Shown: positions 22,438 through 44,827, numbered from the stretch's first letter. The stretch is 44,958 bases of DNA from Thermoanaerobaculia bacterium (GCA_044226625.1 JBGAGQ010000056.1:1-44958), one strand, 5' to 3'. The notes: a model not told the origin generated them from the letters alone. Numbers and translations are program-made.

Positions 22438-23793
22438 ATGGCGCATCCAAAGCCTTCGGATCTGGGGGCCTTCGTCCGCGGTGAGCTGTCGGGAACCGAG
22501 CGACGGGACGTCCTTCGCCACCTCCTCGCGGGTTGTCGCCAGTGCCGCCAAAGGGCGAGCGAGCTCGCGGCGCCCCTGTTCGAAGTTTCGGCCCGCAAGG
22601 CGCCGGCCGGCGGGGTCGACGCCTACGACGCGGCGCTGCGGCGGGTCGCGCGGGCGTTCTCCGGCATGGCGCTCGAGCCCCGGGGCGCCTCGTCGGGCCG
22701 CGCCGCGGAGCTGCCGGCGAGCGGCGCACGGCGGATCCGGCGTCCCGAGGCGACTCCGGGTCGTTCGAAATCCCCCGGACCGGAGGAGCTCAAGGCGCGC
22801 GCCCAGAGCTGGCTCCAACGCGCCAGGATGCTGCGCTACGCCGATCCCGAGCGGATGCGCGCCGCCGCGGCGGTCGCCGTACTGCTCTCCGAGCGGATTC
22901 CGCAGCACGCGTTTCCGCCGGGCGTGGCGGCCGACCTCTGCGCGCTCTCCTGGGCGGAGCTCGCGAACGGTCGTCGATTGGTGGGCGATCATCGGGGCGC
23001 CGAGCGGGCCTTCTCGCGGGCCATCCATTGGATCGACCGCGGCTCGGGCGACCTACATCCACTCGCCGAGATCGCCGAGCTGGTGACCTCGCTGGAGATC
23101 GACACGCGCCGCTTCACCGCGGCCGAGAAGCTGCTCGACCGCATCGTCGTCGCCTACCGCGCCCTCGGCGAACCACATTGCGCCGGCCGGACGCTGATCC
23201 GGCGCGGCGTTCTGCTCGGCTATCGCGGCGAGGGCAACGCGGCGGTGCGCCAGATCGCCGAGGGGCACTCGCTGCTCGATCCGGGGCGGGATGCCCGCCT
23301 GGCGCTGGTCGTCGTGCACGGCCTCGTGAGCCGCCTGGCGGACGCCGGCCGCTTCGAGCTGGCCTCCGAGATCCTGCGCGACGGAGCGTCCCTGTACGAA
23401 ACCTACGCCGAGCCGATCGACCGGATCAAAGTCGCCTGGACCCGGGGGCGGATCGAGATCGGCATGGGACGTCTCGATAAGGGGGAGAAGTACCTTCGCG
23501 AGGGGAGTCGAGGCTTCCGCGACCGGGGCATGCCCTATTTCGCGGCGCTCGTCGCGCTCGACCTCGCGGCGCTCCATTTGAAGCAGGGAAGGACGAGTGA
23601 GGTCGCCCGCTCGATCGCCGATCTGCTCGCCGAGTTCCGCGCGTTGGGGATCCGACGCGAAGCGATCGCCTGCCTGATGATCCTCGAACGGGCGGTCGCA
23701 ACCGAACGGGCCACCGAACGCCTGGTGTCGCGGATCGCCTCGCGTTTGAGCCGGTTCACCGCGCCTTCGCCGGCGGCGGTGCCGGCCGCCTGA
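22438..23793 (+). CDS. TPR-like helical repeat protein with N-terminal zf-HC2-like motif
   Basis: HPKPSDL..F..GEL...ERR.V.RHLLAGCRQC, WAELANGRRL.G....AE.AF, and A..ALDLA.L.L.QGRT.E...F.ALGI.REA.A.L. Confidence 0.8.
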   Translation: MAHPKPSDLGAFVRGELSGTERRDVLRHLLAGCRQCRQRASELAAPLFEVSARKAPAGGVDAYDAALRRVARAFSGMALEPRGASSGRAAELPASGARRIRRPEATPGRSKSPGPEELKARAQSWLQRARMLRYADPERMRAAAAVAVLLSERIPQHAFPPGVAADLCALSWAELANGRRLVGDHRGAERAFSRAIHWIDRGSGDLHPLAEIAELVTSLEIDTRRFTAAEKLLDRIVVAYRALGEPHCAGRTLIRRGVLLGYRGEGNAAVRQIAEGHSLLDPGRDARLALVVVHGLVSRLADAGRFELASEILRDGASLYETYAEPIDRIKVAWTRGRIEIGMGRLDKGEKYLREGSRGFRDRGMPYFAALVALDLAALHLKQGRTSEVARSIADLLAEFRALGIRREAIACLMILERAVATERATERLVSRIASRLSRFTAPSPAAVPAA

Positions 23794-23811
23794 CGAGCGG
23801 CTCTCCAAACC

Positions 23812-23839
23812 CCACGACGGCGGGAGCCTGCCGTCGTGG
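23812..23839. terminator. Hairpin between convergent genes
   Basis: ccacgacggcggg-ag-cctgccgtcgtgg. Confidence 0.6.
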
Positions 23840-23875
23840 CCCCCGTTCCTGCTCTCCTTCGTGACGTTTCGACGG

Positions 23876-24280
23876 TTACGCGCCGCTCGGCTTCGTGCCG
23901 CGGCCGCCGCTCGGTTTGTTCGCTTGCCCGCCGGTCTTCTTCAGACGATCGACCTCTGAGCGGACGATCTCTCGCACCCTGCGATCGAGATCCGGCTCCT
24001 CGGGGGCGTCGGCGTACAGAGCGCCGGCGCCTCGATCGCTCTTGGCCGACTCCGCCAGGCGATCGAGCATCCCCTCGACGATCGGCAGGTGCTGCGTCCC
24101 CTCGCCTTCCCGCCCTTCGAAGGCGGCGACGAACTCCTCCGCCTCGAGGCCGAGCCCGGCCAGAAAACGCCTTGCCCGCCGGATCTCGACCGCGGTCGCT
24201 GGGGCCTCCCCCAGAGCGTCGGTTTCGCGGAGCAACCGAGCGAGGGAGGCCAGGGCCTCGTTTTTACTCTTTTTTGCCAT
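23876..24280 (-). CDS. Small protein, apparent degenerate paralog of the HTH protein at 42090-42581
   Basis: VEIRRARRFLAGLGLEAEEFVAAF parallels IDLKVRHVFEILEVAETYPEDFFGALF. Similar C-terminal helix and basic tail, and the same position convergent on a TPR gene. Confidence 0.6.
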   Translation of the reverse strand: MAKKSKNEALASLARLLRETDALGEAPATAVEIRRARRFLAGLGLEAEEFVAAFEGREGEGTQHLPIVEGMLDRLAESAKSDRGAGALYADAPEEPDLDRRVREIVRSEVDRLKKTGGQANKPSGGRGTKPSGA

Positions 24281-24339
24281 CGGCGAGCGCGAACTCTAGA
24301 CGATCCGTCCCGCCGATTCACCCCTCGCGCGAAACATGG

Positions 24340-25989
24340 TCAAGGGTCGGCGATCGGTGCGGTCCAGATCCCCTCGCGCTGGCCTGAGCGGCGATCGGTC
24401 CACGACGGAAAGAACTTGCCCATGAAGCCGGACAGGCTGTTGTAGTCGCCATACTGGTTGCCCAGGTCGGCTCCGCCGCCGGTCTCGTCGGTGCGCGCGG
24501 TGGTGACCTTGAGGGGCGCGCTCCAGGTTGTCCCGTCGTTGGCCGAGCCCTGGTACCAGAGGTTGGTGCTCTTCCGTGTCGCGTCGCCCACGGTGTCGTA
24601 ATAGATGACGCCGATCCTGCCGTTCGTCTCGTCGACCGCGAGCCACTGGTTGAACTGGTCGGTCTTGCCGGCGCGGTTGTTGATCATCCTCGGCGCCGAC
24701 CAGGTGGCGCCGCCGTCGGTCGAGCGGGCGAACCAGATCCGCGTCTTGCAGGCCGAGGCCGCGTTGTTGCCGGGCTCGTTCGCGGGCGAGCGGCAGCCGG
24801 AGGCTCCCGAGAGGTCGGTCCACGCAGCGTAGACGTTGTTCTTCGCGGCGGTGCGGTAGGCGCCGCCCGAGACGTAGATCAGCGCCCGGCGGTTGTTGAA
24901 CGAGGGAATCCCGATGTCGTAGCCGTCGAAGGTCGAGCCGATCTGCACCGGGCGGGCGAACGAAGCGCCGCCGTTCGTCGACTTGGCGACGAAGACCTTC
25001 CGGTTGTCGGTGGTTGGCCAGAACGCGAAGACGTGCCCCGCGGAGTTGGTCTTGACGTCGCCGCCGATCGCGGTGCCTCCGGTCTCCGAGCCGCTTACCC
25101 GGACCGGCGGCTTCCAGCCGGTCGAGGTCCGCCGGGCGACGAAGGCCGGATCGCCGTTGTGCCAGATGACGTAGACGTTGTTCTTGAACGGCGACGACGC
25201 GCTGTGGTCGACCCATTGGATCTGCTTGTCCGCCCCGGTGTGGTTGCCCGAGACCGTGCCGTCGAAGAGCCAGGTGGCGCCGCCGTCGGTCGAGCGGAAG
25301 GAGTGGATGCGGAGCATCGTGGCGCTGTTGTTGATTCCGATCGTCGTCGACCAGGCGACGCCGTCCGAGGTCCAGTCGACGGTGGGGTCGGAGTTGAACG
25401 CGTCGCCCGCGACCAGCGGCAGCGTCGTCTGGCCCCAGGTGGCGCCGCCGGTGGAGGAGTAGAACTGCGACTGGCGGCCGCTCCCTTCCAGATTGTTCGC
25501 CGCGGCGACGATCTGCTTCGGATTCTTGAAGTTGATCCGGATGTCGGACTCGCTGCGACGTCCCGAGGGGCCCGAGATCAAGACGTTCGCTCCGGTCGAA
25601 GCCCGGAGCGGCGGCTCCTGTCGGTCGGCTTCGCGACGGCCGCGCTCGAGATTCGGATGGTGGCGCATCCACTCGGCCGCCTCTTTGAGGACGAGAGGGT
25701 AGCCCCCGGTCGGATCGGTCGCGGAATAGCGCCCTTCCGGATGCGCCTCGCGCCAAGCCGCGCGCAGCCAGAGGGGGATCGGCAGGCGATCGTTCGCCTC
25801 CTCCCGGCGAAGGGCCGAGAAGTCCTGGTGCTTGCGGATGAAGCTCTCGAGCGCACTCCCTTTCGGGGCGCCGGCCGCGGCGAGCTGCGATTCGATCGTC
25901 GGCGGCGAGAGCGGGAGCGCCCCGGCCAGGGGCGCGGAGAGGGCGAAGAGAACGAGAGTCCGACGGAGGGTCTGAGACGATCGGCGCAT
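24340..25989 (-). CDS. Secreted sialidase-family / BNR Asp-box beta-propeller protein
   Basis: Signal peptide, repeated S.DGG.TW Asp boxes, and QYGDYN. Confidence 0.85.
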   Translation of the reverse strand: MRRSSQTLRRTLVLFALSAPLAGALPLSPPTIESQLAAAGAPKGSALESFIRKHQDFSALRREEANDRLPIPLWLRAAWREAHPEGRYSATDPTGGYPLVLKEAAEWMRHHPNLERGRREADRQEPPLRASTGANVLISGPSGRRSESDIRINFKNPKQIVAAANNLEGSGRQSQFYSSTGGATWGQTTLPLVAGDAFNSDPTVDWTSDGVAWSTTIGINNSATMLRIHSFRSTDGGATWLFDGTVSGNHTGADKQIQWVDHSASSPFKNNVYVIWHNGDPAFVARRTSTGWKPPVRVSGSETGGTAIGGDVKTNSAGHVFAFWPTTDNRKVFVAKSTNGGASFARPVQIGSTFDGYDIGIPSFNNRRALIYVSGGAYRTAAKNNVYAAWTDLSGASGCRSPANEPGNNAASACKTRIWFARSTDGGATWSAPRMINNRAGKTDQFNQWLAVDETNGRIGVIYYDTVGDATRKSTNLWYQGSANDGTTWSAPLKVTTARTDETGGGADLGNQYGDYNSLSGFMGKFFPSWTDRRSGQREGIWTAPIADP

Positions 25990-26097
25990 GGAGTGGGGTT
26001 CCTCCTTGGCTGGAACTTATCAAACCGGGGACGTCGGGGAAAACGCGCGAGCGAAAGCGTGGGAAACCCGGAACAACGCGGCCCCGAAAAGCCGAAA

Positions 26098-26127
26098 CGG
26101 CCGCGGACGCTCGCGCGTCCGCGGCCG
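26098..26127 (-). terminator. Hairpin downstream of the 964-aa gene
   Basis: cggccgcggacgc-tcgc-gcgtccgcggccg, with a short T run following on the minus strand. Confidence 0.65.
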
Positions 26128-26159
26128 CTCGGTGACGAGGGCTTACGGCCGGTGGAGCC

Positions 26160-29054
26160 CTACCGGAGGTCGAGCTCCCAGGAGTTGAGCGTCCCGGTGT
26201 CGGCCGAGGCGAGGTCGCGGACGCGGAGCTTCCAGGCGCCGTTCGTCGCCTTGCCGGTGAAGGCCGACAACGCCTGCGCCGGAGCGGTGAGGTCGGCGTA
26301 GACGGTGTTGATGTTGTCGGTGCCGGCGCCGGTACGGTTGTGGAGCAGGACCGTCGTGTTGTCCGGACCGATCAACGCCACCTCGAGATCGCCCTGATAG
26401 GTGTGGGTGATCGCCACCTTGACCGAGACGCTGGTCACGGTGCCGGTCGCCGGAACGGTGATCGTGTGGGTGATGCCGGTCGTGTTGTTGTCCGGGATCG
26501 CCGTGCCCACGGTCGCCTTGTAGTTGCCGTTGAAGGTGATCTTCCAGCTGTTGAGCGTCCCGGTGTCGGCCGAGGCCAGGTCGCGGACACGCAGCTTCCA
26601 CGCGCCCGAGGTGTTCTTGCCGTTGAACGCGGTGAGCGCCTGGGCGGCCGCTGTGGTGATGCTGTAGGTGGTGTTGATGTTGTCGGTGCCGGCGCCGGTC
26701 CGGTTGTGGAGCAGGACCGTCGTGTTGTCCGGGCCGATCAGCGCGACCTCGAGGTCGCCTTGGTAGGTGTGGGTGATCCCCACCGTGACCGAAACGCTGG
26801 TGATCGTCTGCGACGTCGCGACGTTGATCGTGCTGGTGATGCCGGTCGTGTTGTTGTCCGGAATCGCCAGCGCGGGGGTGGCCGAGGCGGTGATCACGGC
26901 GTTGCCGCCCACCGGGCAGGTGCTCGTGGTCGCCGTCGCCTGGGCCGAGTTACCCGAGGCGCAGGTGCCGTTCGACGCCTGGACGACGTAGAAGTACGGC
27001 GTGTTGCAGGTGAGGCCGGTGTTGCTGAACGAGGTCGTGGCCGAGGTCCCGACCAAGGTGTACGGTCCGCCGCTGGTCCCCGAGCGCAGGACGTTGTATG
27101 AGGTGGCCCCCGCCGAAGCGCTCCAGGACAGGTTGATCTGCGACGTGCTGATCGTCGTCGCGGTCACGCCCGTGGGCGCCGCCGGCGGCGTGCAGGTGTT
27201 GGTGCAGGCGGTGGTCACGAACGCGGTGCAGCCCGCGTTGCAGGAGAGGGTGCCGCCGGTGAAGCCCTGGCTGACGCAGGTCTGGCCGGCGAGGTCGGAG
27301 CCGTCGCAGACCTCCGGCACCTCGCGCAGGTTGTTGCCGCAGACCGGGCTCGTGCCGGCCGGCGCCGAGGTGGCGTAGACGTCGATCGAGTCGGCGGTGC
27401 CGGAGCTCTCGTTCCGGTTGTCGGTGAAGATGCCGAGCACCTGGCTGCCGAGCACGTCGAGACCGTTGTAGTCGCCCCACTGGAAGCTGTCCTCGATGTG
27501 CGGCGAGGTGGCCGTGGTGGCGCGGACCGGCGTGGACCAGGTGTTTCCGCCGTCGGTCGACTTGCTGTAGTAGATGTCGACGCTGGTGCGCGCCGCGTTC
27601 TGCCGCGTGTCGTAGAACATCACGTGCACGGTGCCGTCGGCGCCCACGCCGAGCCACTGGTGGAAGCGGTCGACGGTGCTGGCGTCGGCGGTCTCGTGCG
27701 GCGTGCGCAACGTCCAGGTCGCGCCGCCGTCGGAGGAGTAGGCGACGCGGATCCGCCCGTGGTTGTTCGCCGCGGTGGTCGACTCCGCCGCCGTCGTGTC
27801 GGTCCAGGCGACGTAGATGCGGTTGGCGAACGCCCCGTTCGTCAGGTCGGTGTCGGCCGACACGTACTGGAACGCGCGCCGGGTCTCCATCGCCGGGATG
27901 TTGAAGTCGTAGCCGTCCTGGTTGGTCGCGACCGTCACCGCGGCCGCGAAGGTGGCGCCGCCGTCGGTCGACTTGCGTACCAGGGTGGTCTTGCCCGTCA
28001 CCGTCGGCCAGAAGTAATAGACGTTGCCGTTCTTGTCGGTGGTGATGTCGCTGCCGATGCCTTCCTGGGCGGCACCCGACGACATCGAGACCGGCGCGCT
28101 CCAGGTGTTGCCGAAATCGGTCGAGCGCGAGAACTTGAGCACGTTGTTGTCGTGCCAAGTCATGTAGAGGTTGTCTTTGCGCGGCGAGGTCGCGAACTTG
28201 TCGACGTGGAGGAACTCCTTGTCCGAGATCGCGCCCGAGGTGAGCTCACGCCGGGGGTCGCCGGGGGTCACGGTCTGAAGATCGGTCCAGGTCGCGCCGC
28301 CGTCCGCCGAGCGATAGACCCACACGTCGCACGCCGAGGCGCCGCAACCGCCGAGCGTCGCCGCGTAGGCCTTGGTGCCGTCGGCCGAATACTCGATCGT
28401 CGGATCGCAGCAGGTGCTGCCGAGCGGCAAGGCCGCCGCCTGCGTCCAGGTGCTGCCGCCGTTGGTCGAGAAGTGCATCAGCTGGCCCGAGCCTGGGCCG
28501 TTCGAGCCGGCGATCACCTTGTTGGCGTCGAGCGGATGGATCTTGATCGACGACTCGGCGCCGCCGGTCGGCGAGGTGACCCGAACGTTGCCCGAGAGGG
28601 CGCGCAGCGGATCGTCCTCGTCGACGCCCTTCGGCCGGTTCGGCAACACGACGAAAGCGCCGTCGCGGATCGTCGCGCGCTCGTAGAATTTTCCGTCGAT
28701 CTGATAGCCGCGATGGAGGAGGTAGAACACCTGCAGCGCGCTCCTCGGATACTGCCCCTCTCCCGTGCGGCGAAGGCCCGGGTTCGCGCGGCGCATCTGG
28801 ACCCGGAAGAACGCCGGGATCGGATCCCGCTGCTCGATCTCGTTCGGCGCGAGCAGGGCCAGATCCTTGCGGGTCAGGGCGTAGTTGCGATCGTCCCACG
28901 GGCCGATCAGGGTGAGCTTGCCGTAGTCCACCCGAGGATCGACGCCTTTGGCGGCCTCGATGTGGAGCGGTACGACGGGTGACCTGGGCGTCGCGGCGAG
29001 CGCCGGCAGGGCGAGGGACAGAACTGCCATCGAAAACCAGAGGAGCTTCTTCAA
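26160..29054 (-). CDS. Secreted Asp-box propeller protein with Cys-rich repeat, FN3 and two proprotein-convertase P domains
   Basis: AAGGAG RBS and TTG start. Asp boxes, CGNNLREVPEVCDG, PAAPTG..A..S..QI.LSW...Y FN3, and two copies of IPDNNTTGI...ITHTYQGDL...GAWKLRVRD.ASADTGTLNSW. Confidence 0.88.
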   Translation of the reverse strand: MKKLLWFSMAVLSLALPALAATPRSPVVPLHIEAAKGVDPRVDYGKLTLIGPWDDRNYALTRKDLALLAPNEIEQRDPIPAFFRVQMRRANPGLRRTGEGQYPRSALQVFYLLHRGYQIDGKFYERATIRDGAFVVLPNRPKGVDEDDPLRALSGNVRVTSPTGGAESSIKIHPLDANKVIAGSNGPGSGQLMHFSTNGGSTWTQAAALPLGSTCCDPTIEYSADGTKAYAATLGGCGASACDVWVYRSADGGATWTDLQTVTPGDPRRELTSGAISDKEFLHVDKFATSPRKDNLYMTWHDNNVLKFSRSTDFGNTWSAPVSMSSGAAQEGIGSDITTDKNGNVYYFWPTVTGKTTLVRKSTDGGATFAAAVTVATNQDGYDFNIPAMETRRAFQYVSADTDLTNGAFANRIYVAWTDTTAAESTTAANNHGRIRVAYSSDGGATWTLRTPHETADASTVDRFHQWLGVGADGTVHVMFYDTRQNAARTSVDIYYSKSTDGGNTWSTPVRATTATSPHIEDSFQWGDYNGLDVLGSQVLGIFTDNRNESSGTADSIDVYATSAPAGTSPVCGNNLREVPEVCDGSDLAGQTCVSQGFTGGTLSCNAGCTAFVTTACTNTCTPPAAPTGVTATTISTSQINLSWSASAGATSYNVLRSGTSGGPYTLVGTSATTSFSNTGLTCNTPYFYVVQASNGTCASGNSAQATATTSTCPVGGNAVITASATPALAIPDNNTTGITSTINVATSQTITSVSVTVGITHTYQGDLEVALIGPDNTTVLLHNRTGAGTDNINTTYSITTAAAQALTAFNGKNTSGAWKLRVRDLASADTGTLNSWKITFNGNYKATVGTAIPDNNTTGITHTITVPATGTVTSVSVKVAITHTYQGDLEVALIGPDNTTVLLHNRTGAGTDNINTVYADLTAPAQALSAFTGKATNGAWKLRVRDLASADTGTLNSWELDLR
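26176..26870 (-). repeat. Intragenic duplication of the P domain (366-bp offset)
   Basis: For example ccaggagttgagcgtcccggtgtcggccgagg at 26178 versus ccagctgttgagcgtcccggtgtcggccgagg at 26544. Confidence 0.9.
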
Positions 29055-29291
29055 GAGCCTCTCCTTGAATGGGCCCGAAGGCCGAAGGGTAAAGGGCGCC
29101 GGACGCAGTCCTCACGCAAGGACCGACCGGCGGCCGTCAGAAGGCGCGGAGAAGGGGGACCTCTCCCAAAGTTGTAGGCCGGCTGCGGGCCGGCGAAAGC
29201 GATTGCTACTTGTGGGAGTGCACGAGCGAGGGCAAAGCGGGTCGCCTCGACGAAAAGAAGGCGAAAAGGGGAGCGAGGGAGCGCAAAAATG

Positions 29292-29321
29292 AAAAGGGCG
29301 GCCCCCCGAAGGGAGCCGCCC
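29292..29321 (-). terminator. Intrinsic terminator of the peptidase gene
   Basis: aaaa-gggcggccccc-cgaa-gggagccgccc on the plus strand, which is a hairpin followed by TTTT on the minus strand. Confidence 0.75.
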
Positions 29322-29351
29322 GGGCGAAACGGGCCTACGAAACGCCTTGAA

Positions 29352-31724: not shown

Positions 31725-31728
31725 CGGG

Positions 31729-32229
31729 CTACTCCGTTTCCAGTCCGTTGAGCATCGGTACCTGGCGCGGCGCCTTGAACAGCGCGGAGGCCGCTTCGTC
31801 GGGCGTTTCGGCGCAGGTCATGTGCTGCTTGCCGTTGGCGTCCAAGGTCACGATCGAAACGCTCTGGAAGCGCCCCTGGAGATCGAGGCTCTTCATTCCG
31901 TTCGGGTAGGTCCGGCCAACCAGGCCGGCGGTCGATTCGACGACCAGCTGCGACATCTGGGCGCGGATCGCGGCCATCTGCTCGGGCGTCGGGCGGTCGG
32001 TGATCTTGCCGGTCTCGGGATCGAGGAAGACCCAGAGTCCGGGCGCGACCTCGCCCAGGGCGGAGTTCAACTCGGGCGTTGCGGCCGGAGCGGTGGCGGC
32101 GGCGTCGGCGGTCACGATCGTCGCGTCGGCGGCTCGGGCGCCGTGGGGAGCGAGCCCCAGGCACACCCAGGCCACCGCCGTGACGACGAGGATCGCTCGC
32201 CGCGACAGGGTGGAAAAATCTTGCATCAT
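31729..32229 (-). CDS. Small secreted protein, post-PEP-CTERM-1-like domain
   Basis: Signal peptide, GL.VFLDPETGK...PT, G.V....NG...LDLQGRFQS, and DANGK...TC. Stop lies 4 bp before the peptidase start. Confidence 0.75.
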   Translation of the reverse strand: MMQDFSTLSRRAILVVTAVAWVCLGLAPHGARAADATIVTADAAATAPAATPELNSALGEVAPGLWVFLDPETGKITDRPTPEQMAAIRAQMSQLVVESTAGLVGRTYPNGMKSLDLQGRFQSVSIVTLDANGKQHMTCAETPDEAASALFKAPRQVPMLNGLETE

Positions 32230-33826: not shown

Positions 33827-33843
33827 GGATCGTCGACGAGGCC

Positions 33844-35223: not shown

Positions 35224-35249
35224 GGCCTCTCGCTCCTTGGGGATCGGGC

Positions 35250-35275
35250 GGCGGGAGACGCCAGCGTCTCCCGCC
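35250..35275. terminator. Hairpin between convergent genes
   Basis: ggcgggagacgc-ca-gcgtctcccgcc. Confidence 0.6.
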
Positions 35276-35280
35276 GGCTT

Positions 35281-38200: not shown

Positions 38201-38526
38201 ACGCGCGAGCGCGCCTGGCCGGTGTCGGTCCCCTCCTCGAAGATCGCGTACACGTAGGAGAAGCCGAAGTCGGAGAAGCCGCGCACGGCTTTCACCCCTG
38301 AGGCCCCGAGCAGCGCGGTCACCAGCGGATAAGTCACCTGCGCCTCGATCCGATCGGGCGGCCGGTCCCAGCGCGAGAAAACGATCACTTGCGGGTCCGA
38401 CAGGTCGGGGAGTGCGTCGAGAGGAATGCGGTCGAGCGTCGCCACGGCGAGCAGTACGAGCGCCCCGACCGCAAGCAGCACGAACAGGGGATGGAGCGCC
38501 GAGACGCGGATGATGCGGGCGATCAT
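35281..38526 (-). CDS. cusA: CusA-type Cu(I)/Ag(I) RND efflux permease
   Basis: LDALPDLSD.QVIV, LGPDASGVGWVYQY, and the Met triad contexts LYMPSTLPG, APLSMVETT and RILMLSTG. Also KRARPKLMT. Confidence 0.93.
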   Translation of the reverse strand: MIARIIRVSALHPLFVLLAVGALVLLAVATLDRIPLDALPDLSDPQVIVFSRWDRPPDRIEAQVTYPLVTALLGASGVKAVRGFSDFGFSYVYAIFEEGTDTGQARSRVLEQLAKAQLPEGVRTELGPDASGVGWVYQYALVDRSGRLSSTDLRQLQDWTLRFAVQSVPGVAEVATIGGLPPEMQITADPVRLQAYGLALGDLVAAARDANVESGGRLIEAGGAEIMVRGRGLARNEADLESAVVRAEPGRAPVRLSDVAEVALGPALRRGAADLDGTGDAVGAIVILRHGENALAAIDRVKAKLAELSRSLPPGVEIVPTYDRGSLIRATIRTLRHELVIEMVVVALVILLFLWHFPSAIVPIVTLPVAVLLAFLPFSALGLEINLMSIAGIAISIGVLVDGAIVEVENAYQRIHLWQVGGKKEPFAAVRLRALEEVGPSVFFSLLVIAVAFLPVFALAGQEGRLFRPLAASKNLTMAVAALLAITLDPALRMLFARAEPFAFQPRWLARVTNAFAVGTYRAEGDHPIQRGVAKLYEPACRFVLRHPQATIAAALLLVAASVPAYLSLGSEFMPPLDEGTILYMPSTLPGLSIGEAQRLLTAEDRVLKSFPEVERVFGKAGRAESATDPAPLSMVETTVVLKPRDAWREKRRWWSGHMPSWARAPLAALWPDRISREELIAEMDAAIRAPGVTNSWLQPIQTRILMLSTGLRTPVGIKVYGADLSEIERVGAELESVVARVSGAAHVFAERTAGGLFLDVIPRREELARYGLSVADLDRLLATAAGGEQVATLLDGRARIPISVRLPRELRDTPDALARLPIDTPVGTPVRLGQVADLAVVSGPSMIRDENGFLVGYVYVDVVGRDLGGFVEAAQAAVAREVKLPAGVSLGWSGQYEHLLTARRRLALLVPIALALIYVLLLANTGAAWKATLVMLAVPFSCVGAVWLFWLLGYHVSVAAWVGMIALLGLDAETGVFMLLFLDLSWREARAASRLRTEADLDEAIVHGAVKRARPKLMTVAAAFCGLLPILWTRSAGGDVLQRIAAPMIGGLATSFLLELLVYPAVYKLKRRREIAAEVG

Positions 38527-39854
38527 CGCGGTTCTCTCGGCTTCGGCGGGGTGGCCGCGGAGGGAGTCCGAGGGTTCGGCGAAGCGGGGAGCGCGCCGCG
38601 CAGCCGGCTCTCGGCATCGAGCAAGAACGCCGCTTGCGCCGCCACTTTCTCGCCTTCGCGGACGCCCGAGAGGATCTCCGCTCGGCCGTTCGCGCGCGCC
38701 CCGACCTCGACCTCCCGCGGCGAGAACCGCCCGGCGGCCGTCTCGACGAACGCGAGCGTCCGCTCCCCCGTGGGCAGCAGGCTCGCGTCGGGCAGCAGGA
38801 GGACCGCGCGCGGCGGCTCGGCGAGCTCGACGAACGCGGACATGCCGGGCTTGAGCGCCAGGTCGCCGTTCGGCACCGCGATCCGCACGGTGAGCGTCCG
38901 GTTCGCGGTGTCAAGCATCGGCAGCACTCCGACCAGGCGCCCCGTGCGGCTCGTTCCCGGTACGGCGGCGAAGGTGAGCGTCGCCTCCCTCCCCGCCACG
39001 CCGAGCGCCGCATCCTCCTCGGGGAGGCTCGCCTCGACGAACACGGTCGAAAGGTCGCTGATCTCGAACAGCGTCGCGCCCGCCTCGACCCGGGCCCCGC
39101 GCACCGCGGCGAGCCGGGTCACCCAGCCCGAGGTCGGCGCCGGGATCGCGAGCGTCCGCTCCGTCCGTCCGCTCTGCTCGATACGCCGGAGCGCCGCCTC
39201 GGGCAGGCCGAGCAGCGCGAGCCGTCGCCGCGCAGCCTCGGCGATCTCTCGGCCTCCTTCCACGACCTCCGGAATCGTCGAGGCGGCGAAGCGCGCGGCC
39301 GTCTCCCGGGCGCGGAGATACTCCTCCTGCCCCGCGACCAGCTCGGGCGAAAACAGCTCGGCGAGCGTCTGGCCGCGGCGGACCCGCTCGCCGGTGCGCC
39401 CCACCGACAACCCTTCGAGCCATCCCGCGAAACGCGCCACCACCTCGGTCCGGCGCGCCTCGTCGGCCGTCACCGTCCCGGGCAGGCGGACCGAGCGGGC
39501 GAACGGCTCGCGGACCACCGGAACGACCGCGACCCCGCCGAGCGCGAGACTCGCCGCCGAGAGCGCCGGGGCGGCGGCCGGCTTCGGTGGGGCCCCGGTC
39601 TGTTCCCCCGCCGCTGTCGATCCCGTGGCCTCGCTTCCCGGTTCGGCGTAGACCGGAATGTAGTCCATCCCCATGTCGTCCTTCGCCGGGACCGGCGAGG
39701 TGATGTCGGGCTGCATGGGATGGCGGTAGAAGAGGGGCTTCTGTCCGGCGGCTGCCGGCTCGTGCGCATGTTTCGAGCAGCCGAGCGGGAGCGCGAGGAG
39801 GACCACCAGCGAGAGCACGGCGGTGCGGATGCGGGGGAACGGCCGCGGGGTCAT
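38523..39854 (-). CDS. cusB: CusB-type periplasmic adaptor with N-terminal Met-rich metal-binding motif
   Basis: YRHPMQP...KDDMGMDYIPVY, FSPELV.GQEEYL, LKPGM and AFLLDAESRL. Overlaps cusA by 4 bp. Confidence 0.92.
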   Translation of the reverse strand: MTPRPFPRIRTAVLSLVVLLALPLGCSKHAHEPAAAGQKPLFYRHPMQPDITSPVPAKDDMGMDYIPVYAEPGSEATGSTAAGEQTGAPPKPAAAPALSAASLALGGVAVVPVVREPFARSVRLPGTVTADEARRTEVVARFAGWLEGLSVGRTGERVRRGQTLAELFSPELVAGQEEYLRARETAARFAASTIPEVVEGGREIAEAARRRLALLGLPEAALRRIEQSGRTERTLAIPAPTSGWVTRLAAVRGARVEAGATLFEISDLSTVFVEASLPEEDAALGVAGREATLTFAAVPGTSRTGRLVGVLPMLDTANRTLTVRIAVPNGDLALKPGMSAFVELAEPPRAVLLLPDASLLPTGERTLAFVETAAGRFSPREVEVGARANGRAEILSGVREGEKVAAQAAFLLDAESRLRGALPASPNPRTPSAATPPKPREPR

Positions 39855-41458
39855 CGGACGTCTCCTCTCGAGGGCGGGATTTCCAAGGGGGAAGGAGCTT
39901 GCGGCGAAGAGGGCAGCGGAGAAGGAGAAGGAGGAATCGCGTCGGGTTCGGCGAGCAGCTTCGAGGCGGTGGGCGGTCCGAGCAGCGCCGCGAGCTCCGC
40001 GGCGGCGACGTAGCGGGCTGCTTCGGCCCGTGCGAGATCGGCCCGTGCGTCGATCCAGGTTTGGAATGCGGCAAGCGCCCCCGAAAGGTCGCCTCGTCCG
40101 GCGAGGTAGTCGGAGCGCGAGGCGTCGAAAGCGAGCCGCGCCTGGGGCAGGAGCGCCTCGCGAAGGTGGAACGCGATCTCTCCGTACCGCGCGACGTCGG
40201 CGAGGAGCCGCTCGGACTCGGCCCGCGCGCCGAGCTCGGCCGCCCGGAGGTCCGCGCGCGCGGCTTCGACCTCGCGAGCCGCCGCGACGCGCAACGCCTC
40301 GGCCCGTCCTTTTTGGAGCGAGGGGAGCTGCACCCCGAAGCGGAGCGCGACCATGGGGTCGAGCGGGCCGCGGGTGCCGACGCCGACCCCCGCCGAGAAA
40401 TCCGGTTTCGCCGCAAGCCCCGCGAGGTCCGCGCGAAAGCGCGCCGCCGTCAGCTCGGCGTCGGCCAGCCGCACCTCGGGAGAGTTCGCGAACGCACGGG
40501 CCGGCCTCTCGGTCCGATCCCCCGGCTCCGCTTCGTGGCCGGCGGGGCGCTCGCTCGCCGGAGGTCTTTTCGCTTCGGGTTGATCCGCGGTGCCCGCGGT
40601 GGAAGGAACCGCGGCAGAAGCCGTCTCAGGGCCGGGGTCCGCGGTCGAAGGCGGAGCGGCCTCGGGCTCGAACCATTGCGGTGGCTGCGGCAAAGAGAGC
40701 ACAGGCCCGATCGTCAGGGGGCCGCTCCGGCCGAGCCAGCGTGCGAGCTCCGCCTCGGCGGAGCGCCGCTCGGAGGCGATCTCGATCCGCCGCTCCTCGG
40801 CGTGGAGGCGCTCAAGCTGTGCCCGCGCGACCTCCCCCTGCCCTCCCTGGCCCGCGCCGTAGGCGCTGGTGGCGGTCGCCGCCATCAGATCGAGCAACTC
40901 GCGCCCGGCGTTCCAGGCCGCGTCGGCTTGATCGAGCGCGTAGATCCGGGCGTAAACCGAGCGCACACCGGCGGCCACACGGCGGACCGCGAGCGCGGCG
41001 GCCTCCCGGGGAACCAGGGTCGCGCTGGCCGCGACCGCCCGCTCCGCCCGTCGCCGCGCGGGGTGCGGCAGCTCCTGCCGGACCTCGATCCCCAGAATTG
41101 AAAACTCGCTGGTGCCGACCGTGTAGCGAGGGAAGCTCTCGTCATCGAGATAGGTCTCGATCATCGGCCCCGGCAACGCGCCGGCAGGGCGCGCCGCGGC
41201 CTCCGCCGCCGCCGCGCGCGCTTCGGCCGCGCGGATCTCCGGGTTCGCGGCGAGCGCCTCGGCGATCAGCGTTTCGACGGGGGGCGCCGATTCCGGTGCG
41301 ACCGAAGGCGCTGGGGCGGGCGCGATTGGAGGCGCGGGGGGTGTGGAAACAGGCTGGGCGAGAGTTTGCGAGCCGCTCTGGGAGCCGCCCGGCCGCGCGA
41401 GGGCCGAGCCGATCCAGAGGGCGAGGACGATCGATCGTCGGGCTACGAAGAAGGGCAT
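39851..41458 (-). CDS. cusC: TolC/CusC-family outer membrane efflux protein
   Basis: GGAGG RBS before ATG 41458. ALAANPEI, AGALP.P, QELP.P, NSPEV, KPDF.. and Y.AG. Overlaps cusB by 4 bp. Confidence 0.85.
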   Translation of the reverse strand: MPFFVARRSIVLALWIGSALARPGGSQSGSQTLAQPVSTPPAPPIAPAPAPSVAPESAPPVETLIAEALAANPEIRAAEARAAAAEAAARPAGALPGPMIETYLDDESFPRYTVGTSEFSILGIEVRQELPHPARRRAERAVAASATLVPREAAALAVRRVAAGVRSVYARIYALDQADAAWNAGRELLDLMAATATSAYGAGQGGQGEVARAQLERLHAEERRIEIASERRSAEAELARWLGRSGPLTIGPVLSLPQPPQWFEPEAAPPSTADPGPETASAAVPSTAGTADQPEAKRPPASERPAGHEAEPGDRTERPARAFANSPEVRLADAELTAARFRADLAGLAAKPDFSAGVGVGTRGPLDPMVALRFGVQLPSLQKGRAEALRVAAAREVEAARADLRAAELGARAESERLLADVARYGEIAFHLREALLPQARLAFDASRSDYLAGRGDLSGALAAFQTWIDARADLARAEAARYVAAAELAALLGPPTASKLLAEPDAIPPSPSPLPSSPQAPSPLEIPPSRGDVR

Positions 41459-41533
41459 TGTTCCTCCGGAAAACGGGTCGTCGAGGAGCCCTTGCGGGGC
41501 TCCGAGCGGACACACTTCTCCTGAGGAAACCCC

Positions 41534-41881
41534 CTAGATCAGGAACGCGGCGTAGAGGGTGAAGCGGGCGATCTCCGGATGGAGCGCGGTGGCGTTCCTC
41601 GGCCGTCCGTCGGTCGGCGCGAGAGCGGGGAGACCCGGTGCGGGAGCCGGTGCCGCGGGCGCCGAGGGCAGCGCGGCAAGCGAGGAGACCGCGGACGTGG
41701 GCGCGCGGTCGGCGCGCACGGCCCCGGGGCAGCAGTCGCCCCCCATTCTCCGGCAGGCCTGGCGCGCCACCCGGTCCATCGGGCAACGCTCGGTCCCGCA
41801 GATGCCGCCCGGTGCGGCCCCGCCGATCAGACCGGCGAGGAGGGCAACGGCGGCGAGGCGACGAGGGAGCGCGAGAAACAT
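41534..41881 (-). CDS. Small Cys-rich ORF heading the cus operon (candidate metal-sensing leader peptide)
   Basis: Hydrophobic N-terminus, C....CPM......C...M..DCC, Pro/Ala-rich linker, and C-terminus ARFTLYAAFLI. A TAAGAT -10-like box lies 8 nt before the ATG. Confidence 0.7.
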   Translation of the reverse strand: MFLALPRRLAAVALLAGLIGGAAPGGICGTERCPMDRVARQACRRMGGDCCPGAVRADRAPTSAVSSLAALPSAPAAPAPAPGLPALAPTDGRPRNATALHPEIARFTLYAAFLI

Positions 41882-42089
41882 TCGGCGGTATCTTACGACC
41901 CGGCGAGCCGAAACGCGCCACCTCTTCGGGTAGAGTGCCAGGGTCCACGTCCGTCGCCCGCCGTCATTTTCTGACCTCGAAGACCTCGGAGACGGCGGGG
42001 TCGGCGCGCAGGTCGGCTCTTCTCGTCGAGAAATGTGCATTTCCAGGCAGAGACCCATTCGCCAGGGCCACTCAGGGAGGCGCTTCGGT

Positions 42090-42581
42090 ATGCGCGACGA
42101 AGAACAGAGGATCATCGAGCTACTGGAGATCGCTTTGCGCACTTCGGGCAAGTCGAAGAAGCAGGTGGATGAGAGCCGCGGCTGGTGCCGCGGCACGACC
42201 AGCCAACTGCTCAAAGGGCGAATCGATCTAAAAGTCCGCCACGTGTTCGAGATCTTGGAGGTCGCCGAGACCTACCCGGAGGATTTCTTCGGTGCCCTGT
42301 TCCCGCGCAAGAGCGTTTCTGAGCTGCCGCCTCCGGGGCTGGAGGAGATGATCCGCGCCGCCGCTCGTCGTCACGGACTCACCCCTGAGACGGCCGCTGC
42401 CGACATGGATCGCGTCCATGGCCTCGACCAGCCCCCGCCGTCGGTCGACCAGTTGGTGGCGATGGTCGAGGTCCGATTGAACGCGCTTCTCGCCAAGCAC
42501 GAGGAGAAGCTCGACAAGAAGCGCCCGGGCCGCCAGCCGTCCCGCAAGGGGACGCGTTCCAAGCCCGCCGAGGCGACCTGA
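42090..42581 (+). CDS. XRE-like helix-turn-helix protein
   Basis: GGGAGG RBS. LLEIALRTSGKSKKQVDESRGWCRGTTSQLLKGRIDLKVRHVFEIL...PEDFF. Confidence 0.8.
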   Translation: MRDEEQRIIELLEIALRTSGKSKKQVDESRGWCRGTTSQLLKGRIDLKVRHVFEILEVAETYPEDFFGALFPRKSVSELPPPGLEEMIRAAARRHGLTPETAAADMDRVHGLDQPPPSVDQLVAMVEVRLNALLAKHEEKLDKKRPGRQPSRKGTRSKPAEAT

Positions 42582-42591
42582 TCCTGCGAGA

Positions 42592-43956
42592 TCAAGTGGC
42601 CCCCGGGCGCTGCGGCCGTAGGTTTTCGGCCTCTTTGAGCGCCGCCTTCGCAAGCTCGACGGTGGCCTGCTGCTGGCGGACGGCTTCGTCGAGCAGGAGG
42701 AGCGAGGCGAACTCTTCGCGCTCGATGCCGAGGGCGAGAAAGGCCGCGATCGTTTCTTCGACGATCGTCTTGGCCTCTTCGGTCCGCCCTTCCTGAAGCC
42801 AGATCGCGCAGAGCTCCAGTCCCGCGACCGCGGCGTGCATCGGCAGCTTCAGCCGCGCAAACTCGCGGCGCACCGTGCGGAACGCCGCCTTCGCCTGGTG
42901 CAGCCGGCCGAGACCGGCGGCGATCTTCCCGGCGACGGCGCGCAGCTTCAACCTCTCGATCGGGCTGGCGAGCGCTTCGAGGACCGGGCGCGCGGAAAGG
43001 TGCAGCCGGTCGGCGCGGGCGAAATCTCCCAGATCGGCGAGCAAGAGAATCGCGTTCTTGAGCGCCGAGACCGCCAGATCGGGCGCCTTGTCGGCGTCGA
43101 TGAGATCGTAGGCGCGGCAGAAATGGTTGATCGCCGACTCGACCCTTCCGGCCTGGCCGACGGCGACGCCGCGGAGAAAGAGCGCCTTGCCCGCGCGGTG
43201 AAGCTGACCCTTCTCCAAATAAATCCGATGGGCGAGACCGAGCGCTTCGTCCGCCCGGTCGAACTGGTTTTGATCGATCCATAAGGAGGCGGAGAGATCA
43301 AACAAGCCGGCGAGCACGAGACGATCACCGTGTCCGCGGCCGACGAGGTCCATCGCCCGCCGAAACGACTCTTCGGCCATCCGATAGCGTCCGAGCAGGC
43401 GCTCCGCGTTGGCGAGCTCGGCCCAGAGCCTCGCCGCGAGCTCGGCATCACGCCAGGCCTCCTCTGAACGAGTTTCCCTCGAGGGAAGCAGACGAGTCAC
43501 CTCGGAGACCAGCAGGCGCGCGGCGGCCTCATACGCCTCCGGCGTACCCTGGCGGAGGGCGGGAAACGCCGCCAGCCAGACGCGGCAGCGATAGCGGATG
43601 CGGGCTTCCACCTCAGGACCTTCAGGGATCGGACCGGGTAGTTGTCTCGAAACGAGGAACCGACGGACTTCTTCGGCGACCTTTCGCTGCCGTTGGTCGA
43701 GTCGACGGACGAAACGGGTCATTCGAAGGAGAGCTCCATCGTAGGCCTCGAGCGTGTCCGCAGCGGAACGTGAGGCGCGTGGCGATGGCGAGTGCTCGGG
43801 ATGGAGAGCCAGTTCCATCCAGGGCTTCAGGCGCCGCTGGCAGATGGCGCACCCTCGCACGAGATGGAGCAGCGCGCTGCTTCTTGCCTGAGAATCGAGC
43901 CGATTGTGCAAAAGGTCGATCAACTCAGTGGAAGCGGGGTGCCAGGTCTTGGACAT
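42592..43956 (-). CDS. TPR-like helical repeat protein with N-terminal zf-HC2-like motif (paralog of 22438-23793)
   Basis: GGGAGG RBS. WHP...L.....L......LLHLVRGCAIC, YD.AL.R, WAELANAERL.G, and AAVAGLEL....LQEGRTEE...F.ALGIERE. Confidence 0.82.
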   Translation of the reverse strand: MSKTWHPASTELIDLLHNRLDSQARSSALLHLVRGCAICQRRLKPWMELALHPEHSPSPRASRSAADTLEAYDGALLRMTRFVRRLDQRQRKVAEEVRRFLVSRQLPGPIPEGPEVEARIRYRCRVWLAAFPALRQGTPEAYEAAARLLVSEVTRLLPSRETRSEEAWRDAELAARLWAELANAERLLGRYRMAEESFRRAMDLVGRGHGDRLVLAGLFDLSASLWIDQNQFDRADEALGLAHRIYLEKGQLHRAGKALFLRGVAVGQAGRVESAINHFCRAYDLIDADKAPDLAVSALKNAILLLADLGDFARADRLHLSARPVLEALASPIERLKLRAVAGKIAAGLGRLHQAKAAFRTVRREFARLKLPMHAAVAGLELCAIWLQEGRTEEAKTIVEETIAAFLALGIEREEFASLLLLDEAVRQQQATVELAKAALKEAENLRPQRPGAT

Positions 43957-44790: not shown

Positions 44791-44827
44791 TCGCTTTACA
44801 AGACGACTCGTACGGCTTCGGTCTGCG

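Follow-up and report, generated by a model that had tools for sequence, protein, structure and literature searches.

Genes A and B, located on a 44,958-nucleotide stretch of DNA from a Thermoanaerobaculia bacterium (GCA_044226625.1 JBGAGQ010000056.1:1-44958; called the window below), are members of a large, lineage-restricted and hitherto uncharacterised family of soluble zinc-head/TPR regulators. The strongest link of this family is to a gene for a small, putatively exported pre-peptide, pep, and not to an HTH gene. In the typical cassette pep comes first and the regulator gene second; in some cassettes an ECF sigma gene lies between them, and in others a small convergent XRE-like gene, of a family named F3, is found at the 3′ end (Table 1). 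We found no published description of these cassettes. By analogy with the RRNPP systems, we tentatively propose, at somewhat less than an even chance, that A, B and their relatives are peptide-sensing switches of the anti-sigma type, to which, we infer, the peptide would bind.

Table 1. Features of the window, with positions counted from its first nucleotide
Feature	Position	Strand	Description
pep	22050..22304	+	84-aa pre-peptide gene upstream of A; ORF and translation, conserved in orthologs
Gene A	22411..23793	+	Soluble zinc anti-sigma-domain/TPR regulator; 460 aa from 22411, 451 aa from 22438
P0003	23876..24280	-	134 aa, convergent with A; no recognisable domain; confined to the genus
P0004	42090..42581	+	Divergent XRE-type HTH protein (163 aa) of family F3, C-terminal tail basic; gene convergent with B
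Gene B	42592..43956	-	454 aa, paralogous to A and likewise built of a zinc head and a TPR body

A family of soluble regulators with a zinc-binding head and a TPR body

An earlier note on this DNA had described a twice-occurring module, in which each of two diverged paralogs ends tail-to-tail with a small HTH-type gene and no sigma factor gene lies nearby. The paralogy, the shared motifs, the geometry and the absence of a sigma gene were confirmed, but not the alikeness of the two small genes, the count of two or the start that had been assigned to A. Judged by their sequences, A and B are true paralogs, with 142 of 444 residues identical (32%; E = 2e-51). The motifs noticed in the pair recur as conserved columns throughout the family (H3, H28, C33 and C36, together with YD, AWAELANARR and FRAxGIxREA, the last three of which are included in the family consensus), and the convergent genes are separated by gaps of 82 nt (23793 to 23876) and 10 nt (42581 to 42592). 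As to the start of A, 22411 is more likely than 22438, because the database copy has 460 aa and the orthologs open with MP.DEP about 10 residues before the HP motif.

The AF2 model of A (pLDDT 86.8; residues numbered from 22438) consists of a four-helix zinc head (residues 6–75), a disordered linker (77–105) and a TPR superhelix (115–438); it has no hydrophobic segment, and the regulator is cytoplasmic. The head belongs to the zinc-binding anti-sigma domains of class I. Domains of this class, ZAS, are defined by the zinc motif H-x3-C-x2-C and a further upstream His or Cys ligand. An alignment of 24 heads shows no variation at the zinc ligands H3, H28, C33 and C36, and across 35 full-length sequences their conservation is at least 90%; the spacing is H-x4-C in most heads and H-x3-C in a few. 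Pfam zf-HC2 matched A with E = 1.1e-3 and 19.4 bits, below the curated cut-off of 22.2, and the paralog C132 with 22.3 bits, just over it. When the isolated head (residues 1–80) was modelled by AF2, four helices were obtained (pLDDT 86.8), and in a Foldseek search with this model the listed ranks 1 to 15 were all anti-sigma factors (ChrR, RslA, RsiW and DdvA), ranks 11, 13 and 14 being suppressed repeats. The identities were 28–43% for ranks 1–10 and 20–27% for RsiW and DdvA; ChrR superimposed on the head model with an rmsd of 2.5 over 56 columns, at 32% identity. The E-values of these matches were weak (0.13–0.95) because the domain is small.

The body of A, about 330 residues, was confidently modelled as a TPR superhelix. 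Pfam TPR families matched both A and B, TPR_8 reaching 28.8 bits in B, above the cut-off of 25.7, and the domain searches gave no RRNPP-specific family match. Fold matches of the body include peptide-binding TPR proteins, such as LGN/Pins (E = 4e-5) and the RapJ-PhrC complex (E = 3e-4); these matches are generic, LGN and engineered TPRs outscoring Rap in Foldseek. Similarly, a profile search of solved structures returned RapF with E = 3e-5, ranked under many generic TPR proteins. The assignment of the TPR domain as the sensor, made in the earlier note, is plausible in the light of the AF2 superhelix and of fold matches to peptide-binding TPRs, Rap-Phr complexes included.

The characterisation of the module as an expanded regulatory cassette is supported, but its description as occurring twice proved to be a large undercount: the genome has 26 matches at about 24 loci, 18 of which carry the H-x3-4-C-x2-C head. 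Relatives of the same taxonomic family have 12–28 copies per genome, and 4955 representative database proteins match at E<=1e-30. In four paralogs of the genome an XRE HTH head replaces the zinc finger, and the TPR body of these proteins is homologous to the body of A. Five database relatives have the same XRE-HTH and TPR architecture (HTH_3/HTH_31 with TPR_12). This fused arrangement is an RRNPP-like architecture, and the HTH-headed paralogs have pep adjacent to them and the same TPR body as the zinc-headed copies.

A gene for a small, putatively exported pre-peptide accompanies the family

The "DPxG peptide" mentioned in the earlier note is real and corresponds to the small, putatively exported ORF pep. 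Its product comprises a signal peptide, judged by eye, with an A-x-A site, an amphipathic Trp-rich helix, a Gly-rich linker, the C-terminal sequence G-T-S-L-D-P-S-G and a 6-residue tail; pep-type genes bear C-terminal G-x3-D-P-x-G units. The gene lies 106–133 nt upstream of A. It has no Pfam or NCBIfam family, and in the family alignment A2 the residues M1, A28, G71, D75 and P76 are invariant.

To the regulator family pep is linked far beyond chance. An HMM built from four seeds gave eight new genome-wide matches, six of them within 300 nt of a family member, in neighbourhoods that make up about 1% of the genome. A second round yielded 19 matches at E<1e-3, of which 16 lay 17–654 nt from a family member and one further match adjoined a family fragment at a contig end. 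By the same threshold, pep stands beside 16 of the 24 family copies and is absent from the other eight.

The association is kept across genera. In all six same-genus loci, pep is found upstream of the A-ortholog with its C-terminal unit unchanged; it is also present in all five of the best loci from other genera of the family and in a single locus from a different family of the order, which makes 12 of 19 non-own loci overall. Although no pep was detectable near B in the 1 kb upstream, up to the contig end, all four B-ortholog loci, from three same-genus genomes, have it upstream of the regulator. In another genus, five pep matches were found beside the 12 family genes examined, one of them in a pep, sigma, regulator operon. 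A search of 24 loci that belong to other families within the class and the phylum revealed no D-P-x-G peptide and only three weak matches to other small exported ORFs.

In two pep orthogroups, one of 17 and the other of 18 database proteins, conservation apart from the signal peptide is highest in the unit and the 5–8 residues that precede it, and the linker or the tail past the unit is variable; in the first orthogroup the protein ends exactly at D-P-N-G. Precursors with two or three units have near-identical units, which differ between cassettes. Adjacency and co-inheritance of this kind can equally arise if pep is a regulated target.

Sigma factor genes and convergent neighbours

None of the 43 Sigma70_r2 matches in the genome falls on the contig of A and B, in line with the earlier observation, and both genes lack the adjacent ECF sigma gene that is usual for ZAS anti-sigma factors. 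Elsewhere in the genome, ECF sigma genes at C76:153522 and C76:156689 lie immediately upstream of the paralogs C76:154048 and C76:157213, respectively, with overlapping stop and start codons, and a more divergent sigma homolog on contig C20, before the paralog C20:50334, is a probable further case. A sigma gene adjoins only about three of the 24 family copies. Since the head is a class I zinc domain and three paralogs are situated in sigma/anti-sigma operons, the default output partner of the family is probably a sigma factor and not the separate XRE protein that the earlier note had proposed; the lack of a detectable HTH in P0003 likewise speaks against that proposal.

The claim that a small HTH-type gene stands beside each regulator probably holds for P0004 but was not borne out for P0003. 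P0003 gave neither an HTH nor any other family match in domain searches, has no paralogs in the genome, and did not match P0004 by BLASTP (best E = 3.7); it is convergent with the A-ortholog in six of six same-genus loci, at 55–68% identity. A profile-profile comparison with the family of P0004 gave 57% probability over 53 columns, confined to the last HTH helices and the linker. P0004 alone matched Pfam HTH_31 with E = 0.16, and its paralogs did so with E = 3e-3 and 1.7e-5. The F3 family profile matched solved XRE regulators (C.BclI, E = 0.0044; HipB, E = 0.046), and P0004 probably has a five-helix Cro/C1-type HTH domain.

Of the two neighbour types, only F3 recurs. The genome has six F3 homologs, counting P0004, and five of them are found within 5 kb of a regulator of the family, which amounts to five of the approximately 24 regulator copies; in three loci the F3 gene is 2.6–4.7 kb away, behind other genes. 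F3 is convergent with the regulator in four other genera and with the B-ortholog in two of four loci. Distances among 11 regulator/F3 pairs are correlated (Mantel r 0.945, p 2e-4), a signal of linkage and not of binding, which co-inheritance alone would give; as far as these distances tell, F3 is inherited together with its TPR gene. No cassette among those examined has a sigma gene and an F3 gene together.

A possible peptide-sensing switch and its alternatives

The cassette has the five operational features of RRNPP systems given in the available text of PMC10075063, namely a small propeptide, a Sec signal, a receptor of 250–500 aa, TPRs and direct neighbourhood of the two genes. The size range and the TPRs are found in A (451–460 aa) and B (454 aa); an adjacent Sec pro-peptide of 10–100 aa is present for A and in four of four B-ortholog loci, but not for B in this assembly. 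In the mechanism that we propose, the pre-peptide would leave the cell and be processed to a short peptide with the G-x3-D-P-x-G unit at its end or within it; this peptide would re-enter the cell and bind the TPR groove of its cognate regulator. Binding would alter the hold of the zinc head on its partner. This partner would be the ECF sigma factor where one is co-encoded, and in cassettes of the A and B type either the small protein encoded next door or a sigma factor whose gene lies elsewhere. In the four HTH-headed paralogs, the same type of signal would act on DNA binding directly. An import route is possible, since the genome has one gene for an OppA-type peptide-binding protein. The organism is diderm and therefore the peptide would have to cross two membranes, for which we found no precedent in the literature searched. 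As regards the earlier view of the module as an RRNPP-like switch, the expanded cassettes, the plausible TPR sensor, the pep linkage and the fused-HTH paralogs support it, but the separate XRE output is not supported.

The same proteins might instead be ordinary soluble anti-sigma factors, in which the TPR body senses an intracellular cue or protein and pep is a co-transcribed regulon member or target and not a ligand. This we regard as possible but doubtful. The anti-sigma head, the three copies within sigma/anti-sigma operons, the third of the copies without pep and the failure to find the D-P-x-G peptide in more distant members of the class all agree with it, and ECF operons are commonly autoregulated. 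It leaves unexplained, however, why pep has a conserved short C-terminal unit, why this unit is duplicated in precursors and flanked by cassette-specific sequences, and why the same peptide family occurs beside HTH-headed paralogs that have no anti-sigma domain. A split RRNPP-like switch, in which the zinc-finger/TPR sensor holds or releases the convergent small XRE protein as the output, was the model of the earlier note and seems improbable to us. F3 does belong to the XRE type, is mostly close to family members, keeps its convergent orientation in other genera and among B-orthologs, and co-varies with its regulator; moreover, the mutual exclusion of sigma and F3 genes in the cassettes examined would fit alternative partners. 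But F3 accompanies only a minority of the copies and is separated by other genes in three loci, P0003 has no detectable HTH and a profile link to F3 of 57% probability, the Mantel signal is expected from co-inheritance, and the known partners of anti-sigma domains are sigma factors, not XRE proteins.

Still less probable is a secretion-coupled feedback, in which the TPR body would chaperone unexported pre-peptide and the hold of the head on its partner would report the progress of export, following the logic of FlgM and of the TPR chaperone/activator pairs of type III secretion. The side-by-side coding of a TPR protein and an exported small protein would suit it, as would a cytoplasmic regulator whose model lacks a hydrophobic segment. 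However, pep has an ordinary, cleavable signal peptide, and export by such a signal normally needs no dedicated chaperone. Moreover, the cassettes are not linked to any secretion system, and conservation in pep is highest in the short C-terminal unit and not over a long chaperone-binding region. That there is no cassette at all, only generic TPR paralogs with accidental neighbours, we consider very improbable: the Pfam matches are weak and generic and the two convergent neighbours are unrelated by BLAST, but the pep linkage, conserved across genera, already contradicts this, and the zinc ligands of the head are invariant.

Under the proposed peptide-sensing mechanism, the family may be a Gram-negative counterpart of the Gram-positive peptide quorum-sensing switches. 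Cytoplasmic peptide-receptor quorum sensing is presented in the available text of PMC10075063, and in the literature searched, as a trait of Gram-positive Bacillota and of phages and plasmids, and Gram-negative signalling as small-molecule based. If true, peptide/TPR-receptor logic would extend to a diderm phylum abundant in soils, sludge and bioreactors and would be coupled to ECF sigma control. In the most far-reaching version, which we think rather unlikely, Thermoanaerobaculia would run many parallel, orthogonal channels, each leading from an exported and re-imported D-P-x-G peptide through a soluble anti-sigma/TPR receptor to an ECF sigma factor, or through HTH-headed paralogs to DNA binding; this would be a Gram-negative counterpart of RRNPP that evolved independently, and no sigma/anti-sigma pair would have been known before to be gated by a peptide pheromone that a gene encodes. 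The cassettes give access to a large number of "orphan" anti-sigma-like genes and to an unnamed peptide family, and they provide pairs of peptide and regulator that are possibly orthogonal. Even if pep is only a regulated product, the family has a new architecture of soluble anti-sigma factor.

Comparison with known systems

In the RRNPP(A) systems of Bacillota (Rap-Phr, NprR-NprX, PlcR-PapR, PrgX, Rgg-SHP and AimR-AimP), as far as the available text of PMC10075063 describes them, a cytoplasmic TPR receptor of 250–500 aa is encoded beside a Sec-exported pro-peptide gene, as here. Further likenesses are a conserved unit at the C-terminal end of the pro-peptide, tandem duplication of units in some precursors (tandem pro-peptides are known in RRNPP, according to the available text of PMC11343458), many paralogous cassettes per genome, heads that bind DNA (HTH) or protein (as in Rap), and a TPR body whose fold matches Rap-Phr complexes. 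The present cassettes differ in their host, a diderm acidobacterium (class Thermoanaerobaculia by database names), RRNPP being described for Bacillota and mobile elements in the literature searched. They also differ in their zinc anti-sigma head and in the position of the peptide gene, mostly upstream of the receptor; the detectable sequence relationship is limited to generic TPR, and the cassettes are known from sequence and models.

With the class I ZAS proteins (ChrR, RslA, RsiW and RsrA), which include the best fold matches, the family shares an N-terminal helical domain with the H...H-x3-C-x2-C zinc motif and, in three paralogs, a position next to an ECF sigma gene, whose stop codon overlaps the start codon of the regulator gene that follows it. 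In contrast to these proteins, most members have H-x4-C-x2-C, the C-terminal part is a soluble TPR superhelix and not a membrane span or cupin, most copies, A and B included, have no nearby sigma gene, and the family is linked to an exported peptide gene. The ECF42-type sigma factors, which have a C-terminal TPR extension, resemble the family in that a TPR module regulates an ECF sigma circuit, as described in the available text of PMC7826278; in ECF42 the sigma factor itself carries the TPR and an anti-sigma factor is absent, whereas here the TPR is fused to the anti-sigma domain. The XRE-HTH and TPR one-component regulators have exactly the architecture of the four genome paralogs and five database relatives, A and B differing from them in carrying the zinc anti-sigma head instead of the HTH.

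Genes A and B and their convergent neighbours

We analysed the two zinc-finger/TPR genes of the window, A and B, in the context of their 6.6-Mb genome (133 contigs, 68% G+C, estimated contamination 5.5%), in which the window is contig C51. The two proteins aligned over 444 residues with 32% identity (E 2e-51), and the head residues H3, H28, C33 and C36 were kept in a 35-member family alignment and invariant in 24 aligned heads. The earlier note on this DNA had taken A and B to be paralogs with shared head motifs, and both points are borne out. The tail-to-tail geometry that it described also stands, the convergent genes P0003 and P0004 lying 82 nt from A and 10 nt from B, respectively, as does the absence of a nearby sigma factor (no sigma-region-2 match on the contig). 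Its claim of the same arrangement at two sites is not borne out, in that P0003 and P0004 have no detectable similarity to each other (best E 3.7).

Gene A probably starts at 22411 rather than 22438, because the database copy has 460 aa and the orthologous sequences begin about 10 residues ahead of the HP motif. Contigs from an RNA library (run X4) cover 23328-23481 within A, and 23842-24050 and 24254-24400, which fall over P0003 and its start; as RNA libraries can contain DNA, this cover points at most weakly to expression of A and P0003. These contigs have no cover over pep, the small, predicted exported pre-peptide gene upstream of A, and are uninformative on its expression. An Rfam search of the window found no RNA family, and a promoter/terminator scan of 21600-24400 found nothing exceeding the shuffled expectation.

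Elsewhere in the window, 24340-31817(-) encodes three large secreted-type proteins with BNR/sialidase-like repeats and proprotein-convertase P, fn3, PA and DUF11 domains; these genes have an unusual codon-position composition, with a GC3 of 0.91-0.94 and a GC1 of 0.55-0.58 compared with roughly 0.84 and 0.70 in genes nearby. The region 35281-41881(-), which directly adjoins the P0004/B pair, holds a CusCBA-like RND efflux operon (OEP, HlyD_D23, ACR_tran) and, ahead of it at 41534-41881, an exported Cys-rich ORF of 115 aa.

Coordinates and arrangement of the features (coordinates without a contig name refer to the window; C and L numbers are contigs and loci of the same genome)
Feature	Location	Arrangement or basis
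Gene A	22438-23793(+)	
Gene B	42592-43956(-)	
P0003	23876-24280(-)	convergent with A
P0004	42090-42581(+)	convergent with B
pep, window copy	22050-22304(+)	
Four-helix head of A	residues 6-75	AF2 model, pLDDT 86.8
Disordered linker of A	residues 77-105	AF2 model
TPR superhelix of A	residues 115-438	AF2 model
HTH-headed paralogs	C13:9042, C46:17965, C57:597, C5:43431	XRE-type HTH head on homologous TPR body
HTH-headed loci with convergent pep	C13:9042-11000, C46:17965-20072, C57:2-2078, C5:43103-44906	
pep upstream, same strand (n=10)		A among them; one has an intervening sigma gene
pep downstream, same strand (n=1)		
pep convergent with regulator (n=4)		the four HTH-headed copies; Cys-bracketed units, 1-3 per precursor
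pep divergent from regulator (n=1)		
pep beside family fragment at contig end	C69:32290-33454	four units in precursor
F3 (P0004 family) at B	10 nt away	convergent
F3 at C124	0.9 kb away	convergent
F3 at C76, C125, C109	2.6-4.7 kb away	divergent side
Pterin_4a-like pair loci	L013:4579-5831, L014:5898-7217, L015:2655-3928, L017:835-2023, L018:5718-6550	same genome, other contigs

Predicted architecture and spread of the family

The isolated head of A (80 residues) was modelled with a pLDDT of 86.8. Its fold matches at listed ranks 1-15 were solely anti-sigma factors (ChrR, RslA, RsiW and DdvA; ranks 11, 13 and 14 are suppressed repeats), with identities of 28-43% at ranks 1-10 and 20-27% for RsiW and DdvA. 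Their E-values were weak (0.13-0.95), as expected for 80 residues. The TPR body matched LGN/Pins (E 4e-5), MalT domain III, RapJ-PhrC (E 3e-4) and a phage Rap with its pheromone; as modelled, it resembles peptide-binding TPRs, although such matches are generic for TPR proteins. Given the conserved zinc ligands and the fold matches of head and body, A is, on these models, a soluble protein that joins a zinc anti-sigma domain to a sensor-like TPR body.

The genome has 26 matches to A, representing about 24 loci by our own gene calls, which outside the window came from a custom codon-usage caller. The H-x3-4-C-x2-C head is present in 18 of these loci. HTH-headed paralogs are listed in the table, and an HTH head on a TPR body also occurs in five distant database relatives. 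At C101:4261-5592, the genome search read through an in-frame TGA in one paralog, which may simply reflect a neighbouring frame or a broken copy.

Among 21 related genomes, which include this one and are not independent, 19 had a match at E<=1e-30. At this threshold, 12 other genomes of the same family carry 12-28 copies each; six further families of the order have 1-10 per genome, and two have none. Of 150 other genomes sampled evenly across the phylum, with at most 11 candidates scored per genome, ten had a match at E<=1e-20 (the unpublished genome G044 being one of them), nine of these in the same order or class. When 1.84 billion representative proteins were searched with a profile, 4955 matched at E<=1e-30, and the best 150 of them are mostly full-length, at about 450 aa. 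Database names of family members are only 'hypothetical', 'TPR repeat' or 'zf-HC2 domain-containing'; A, B, P0003, pep and F1 had no match in NCBIfam, and A retrieved only unnamed TPR clusters, from Acidobacteriota, in the ESM Atlas.

A family of genes for predicted exported peptides adjoins most of the regulator genes

The ORF upstream of A (88 aa; 84 aa at the coordinates in the table) resembles small ORFs adjoining three other family copies. These four seed ORFs share a signal peptide with an A-x-A site (assigned by eye), a Trp-rich amphipathic helix, a linker and a C-terminal G-x3-D-P-[NDSH]-G unit. The four were used to train an HMM, which, run on all 85,574 six-frame ORFs of the genome, gave eight further matches at E<0.03, six of them within 300 nt of a family member; as about 1% of the genome lies in the neighbourhoods of the 24 copies, about 0.1 match would be expected by chance. 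A second-round HMM gave 19 matches at E<1e-3. Sixteen of them are 17-654 nt from a family member, one more adjoins a family fragment at a contig end, and two (C60:15866 and C125:105900) lie away from the family. Eight copies in this genome, including B, had no second-round match at that threshold.

The units are near-identical within a precursor and differ between cassettes (pep plus regulator gene, with or without a sigma or F3 gene). The HTH-headed siblings are accompanied by the same peptide family as the zinc-headed copies. Their precursors carry a Cys-bracketed form of the unit, C-x-[LIV]-D-P-x-G-x-C, 1-4 times each (C69 included), a pattern that suggests disulfide-closed loops and a distinct sub-class. 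Two pep orthogroups (17 and 18 proteins) are well conserved in the signal peptide, the helix, and the unit with its preceding 5-8 residues, and poorly in the linker or in the tail past the unit; in one orthogroup the protein ends exactly at D-P-N-G. Searching a database with the pep profile gave 61 clusters, every one unnamed or 'hypothetical', the named ones coming from Thermoanaerobaculia; one cluster has a locus tag adjacent to that of an A-ortholog. We set aside D-P-x-G as a sorting signal, since the motif, often at the very C-terminus, is followed by neither a hydrophobic segment nor a basic tail. A RiPP precursor was likewise set aside, given the Sec signal peptides and the lack of recurring modification enzymes in the neighbourhoods.

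The cassette is conserved in other genomes. All six same-genus A orthologs have pep upstream with its C-terminal unit unchanged, and pep was found at 5/5 best loci from other genera of the family and at one locus from another family of the order (12 of 19 non-own loci in total). No D-P-x-G peptide turned up at 24 loci from families further away, where three weak matches to other small exported ORFs were all that was seen. All four B-orthologous loci (three same-genus genomes) have pep upstream, with three G-W-x-x-D-P-[ND]-G units in three of them and degenerate units in the fourth (L054). A six-frame search found no pep upstream of the window's B; at the corresponding position there is unrelated sequence (43957-44958) that includes a 21-nt x5 tandem repeat (80% matches) at 44284-44389, and the contig ends 570 nt past the repeat. 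Loss of pep from the window's B, its replacement, or its omission from the assembly may account for this. In a genome of another genus (G009), nine regions with 12 family genes include five adjacent pep genes, two convergent F3 genes and one pep-sigma-regulator operon.

Partner genes differ between cassettes

Four genes on each side of every copy in this genome were clustered and Pfam-scanned. Most cassettes have a cognate exported-peptide gene, and the partner gene is a sigma factor, F3 or none, depending on the cassette. At C76:153522 and C76:156689 an ECF sigma gene directly precedes a regulator gene in the same direction, its stop codon overlapping the regulator's start codon, a sequence-divergent ECF sigma homolog (C20:51343) lies beside another copy, and classic HTH_3 genes are found divergently at C11 and C58. 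The dense C76 cluster (152499-158601, L020) comprises a sigma-54-activator-like AAA+/HTH_8 gene, three ECF sigma genes and two zinc-finger/TPR genes, with a pep-like ORF upstream of the second sigma gene; it is syntenic in another genus (G009, L090), where the peptide ends in D-P-N-G.

The F3 profile matched the solved XRE regulators C.BclI (E 0.0044) and HipB (E 0.046), and two F3 paralogs match HTH_31 or HTH_3 (E 3e-3 and 1.7e-5). On these matches, P0004, which has a basic tail, is probably a diverged XRE-type HTH protein. Of the six F3 homologs encoded in the genome, counting P0004, five are no more than 5 kb from a family member. At 2/4 B-orthologous loci and at four of five loci from other genera, F3 and the regulator gene are convergent; at the fifth of the latter they are divergent. 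For 11 regulator/F3 pairs, the pairwise distances of the two genes are correlated (Mantel r 0.945, permutation p 2e-4), indicating that the two genes duplicate and travel together; the correlation says nothing on binding. P0003 is convergent with A at all six same-genus loci (55-68% identity) and has no paralog in this genome, no family assignment and no usable ESM Atlas match. Compared profile to profile with F3, of which it might be a decayed form, it gave a probability of 57%, over the last HTH helices and linker only. A Pterin_4a-like gene and a 130-150-aa basic-tailed gene of unknown function form a pair at five family loci; the Pterin_4a-like matches (E 1e-5 to 1e-11) fall well short of the dehydratase's equivalog cut-offs in NCBIfam. 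At three of these loci F3 is next, directly or after one gene, and the operon is divergent from the pep-regulator pair.

Possible mechanism and relation to known systems

By a logic like that of RRNPP, the Gram-positive peptide quorum-sensing receptors with TPRs, the pep product would be exported and processed to a short peptide with its end at or near the D-P-x-G unit, then re-imported and bound in the TPR groove, and binding would switch the hold of the zinc head on its partner. We propose this sequence of steps tentatively and judge it to fall somewhat short of probable. The genome has one OppA-type gene as a candidate peptide-uptake component. A complex prediction for the TPR body of A (106-445) with mature pep (29-84) scored 0.01 against a mark of 0.32 and is uninformative on binding.

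The main rival is that the protein is an ordinary anti-sigma factor and pep merely a member of its regulon, which we consider somewhat less likely; the anti-sigma folds of the head and the overlapping sigma genes have to be set beside the recurrence of pep at loci whose regulator carries an HTH head. The earlier note had proposed that the TPR protein senses the peptide and a separate XRE protein is the output. The probable XRE-type assignment of P0004 and the joint inheritance of F3 and regulator stand beside a P0003 unlike P0004, and this model, improbable for the family, may hold for F3-type cassettes such as B. A chaperone-feedback reading of the TPR protein is less likely still.

In full-text literature other than subscription journals, we found no account of a zinc anti-sigma/TPR protein with an exported peptide as its partner, nor of peptide-receptor signalling in Acidobacteria. 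The accessible text of the ECF reclassification (PMC7826278) mentions TPRs only as ECF42 sigma extensions and in one FecR-like anti-sigma factor, and states that soluble anti-sigma factors not yet known probably exist. The openly searchable literature reports RRNPP(A) systems from Bacillota and from their mobile elements. These systems are defined by five operational criteria in the accessible part of PMC10075063, to which the cassette logic here corresponds. We see the family as a variation on kinds already known, its head making it an anti-sigma factor and the logic of its cassettes resembling RRNPP, and place it outside RRNPP, since its TPR matches are generic ones that do not establish homology. 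The split of RRNPP receptors into protein-binding Rap and HTH types is paralleled here by the zinc-headed and HTH-headed members.
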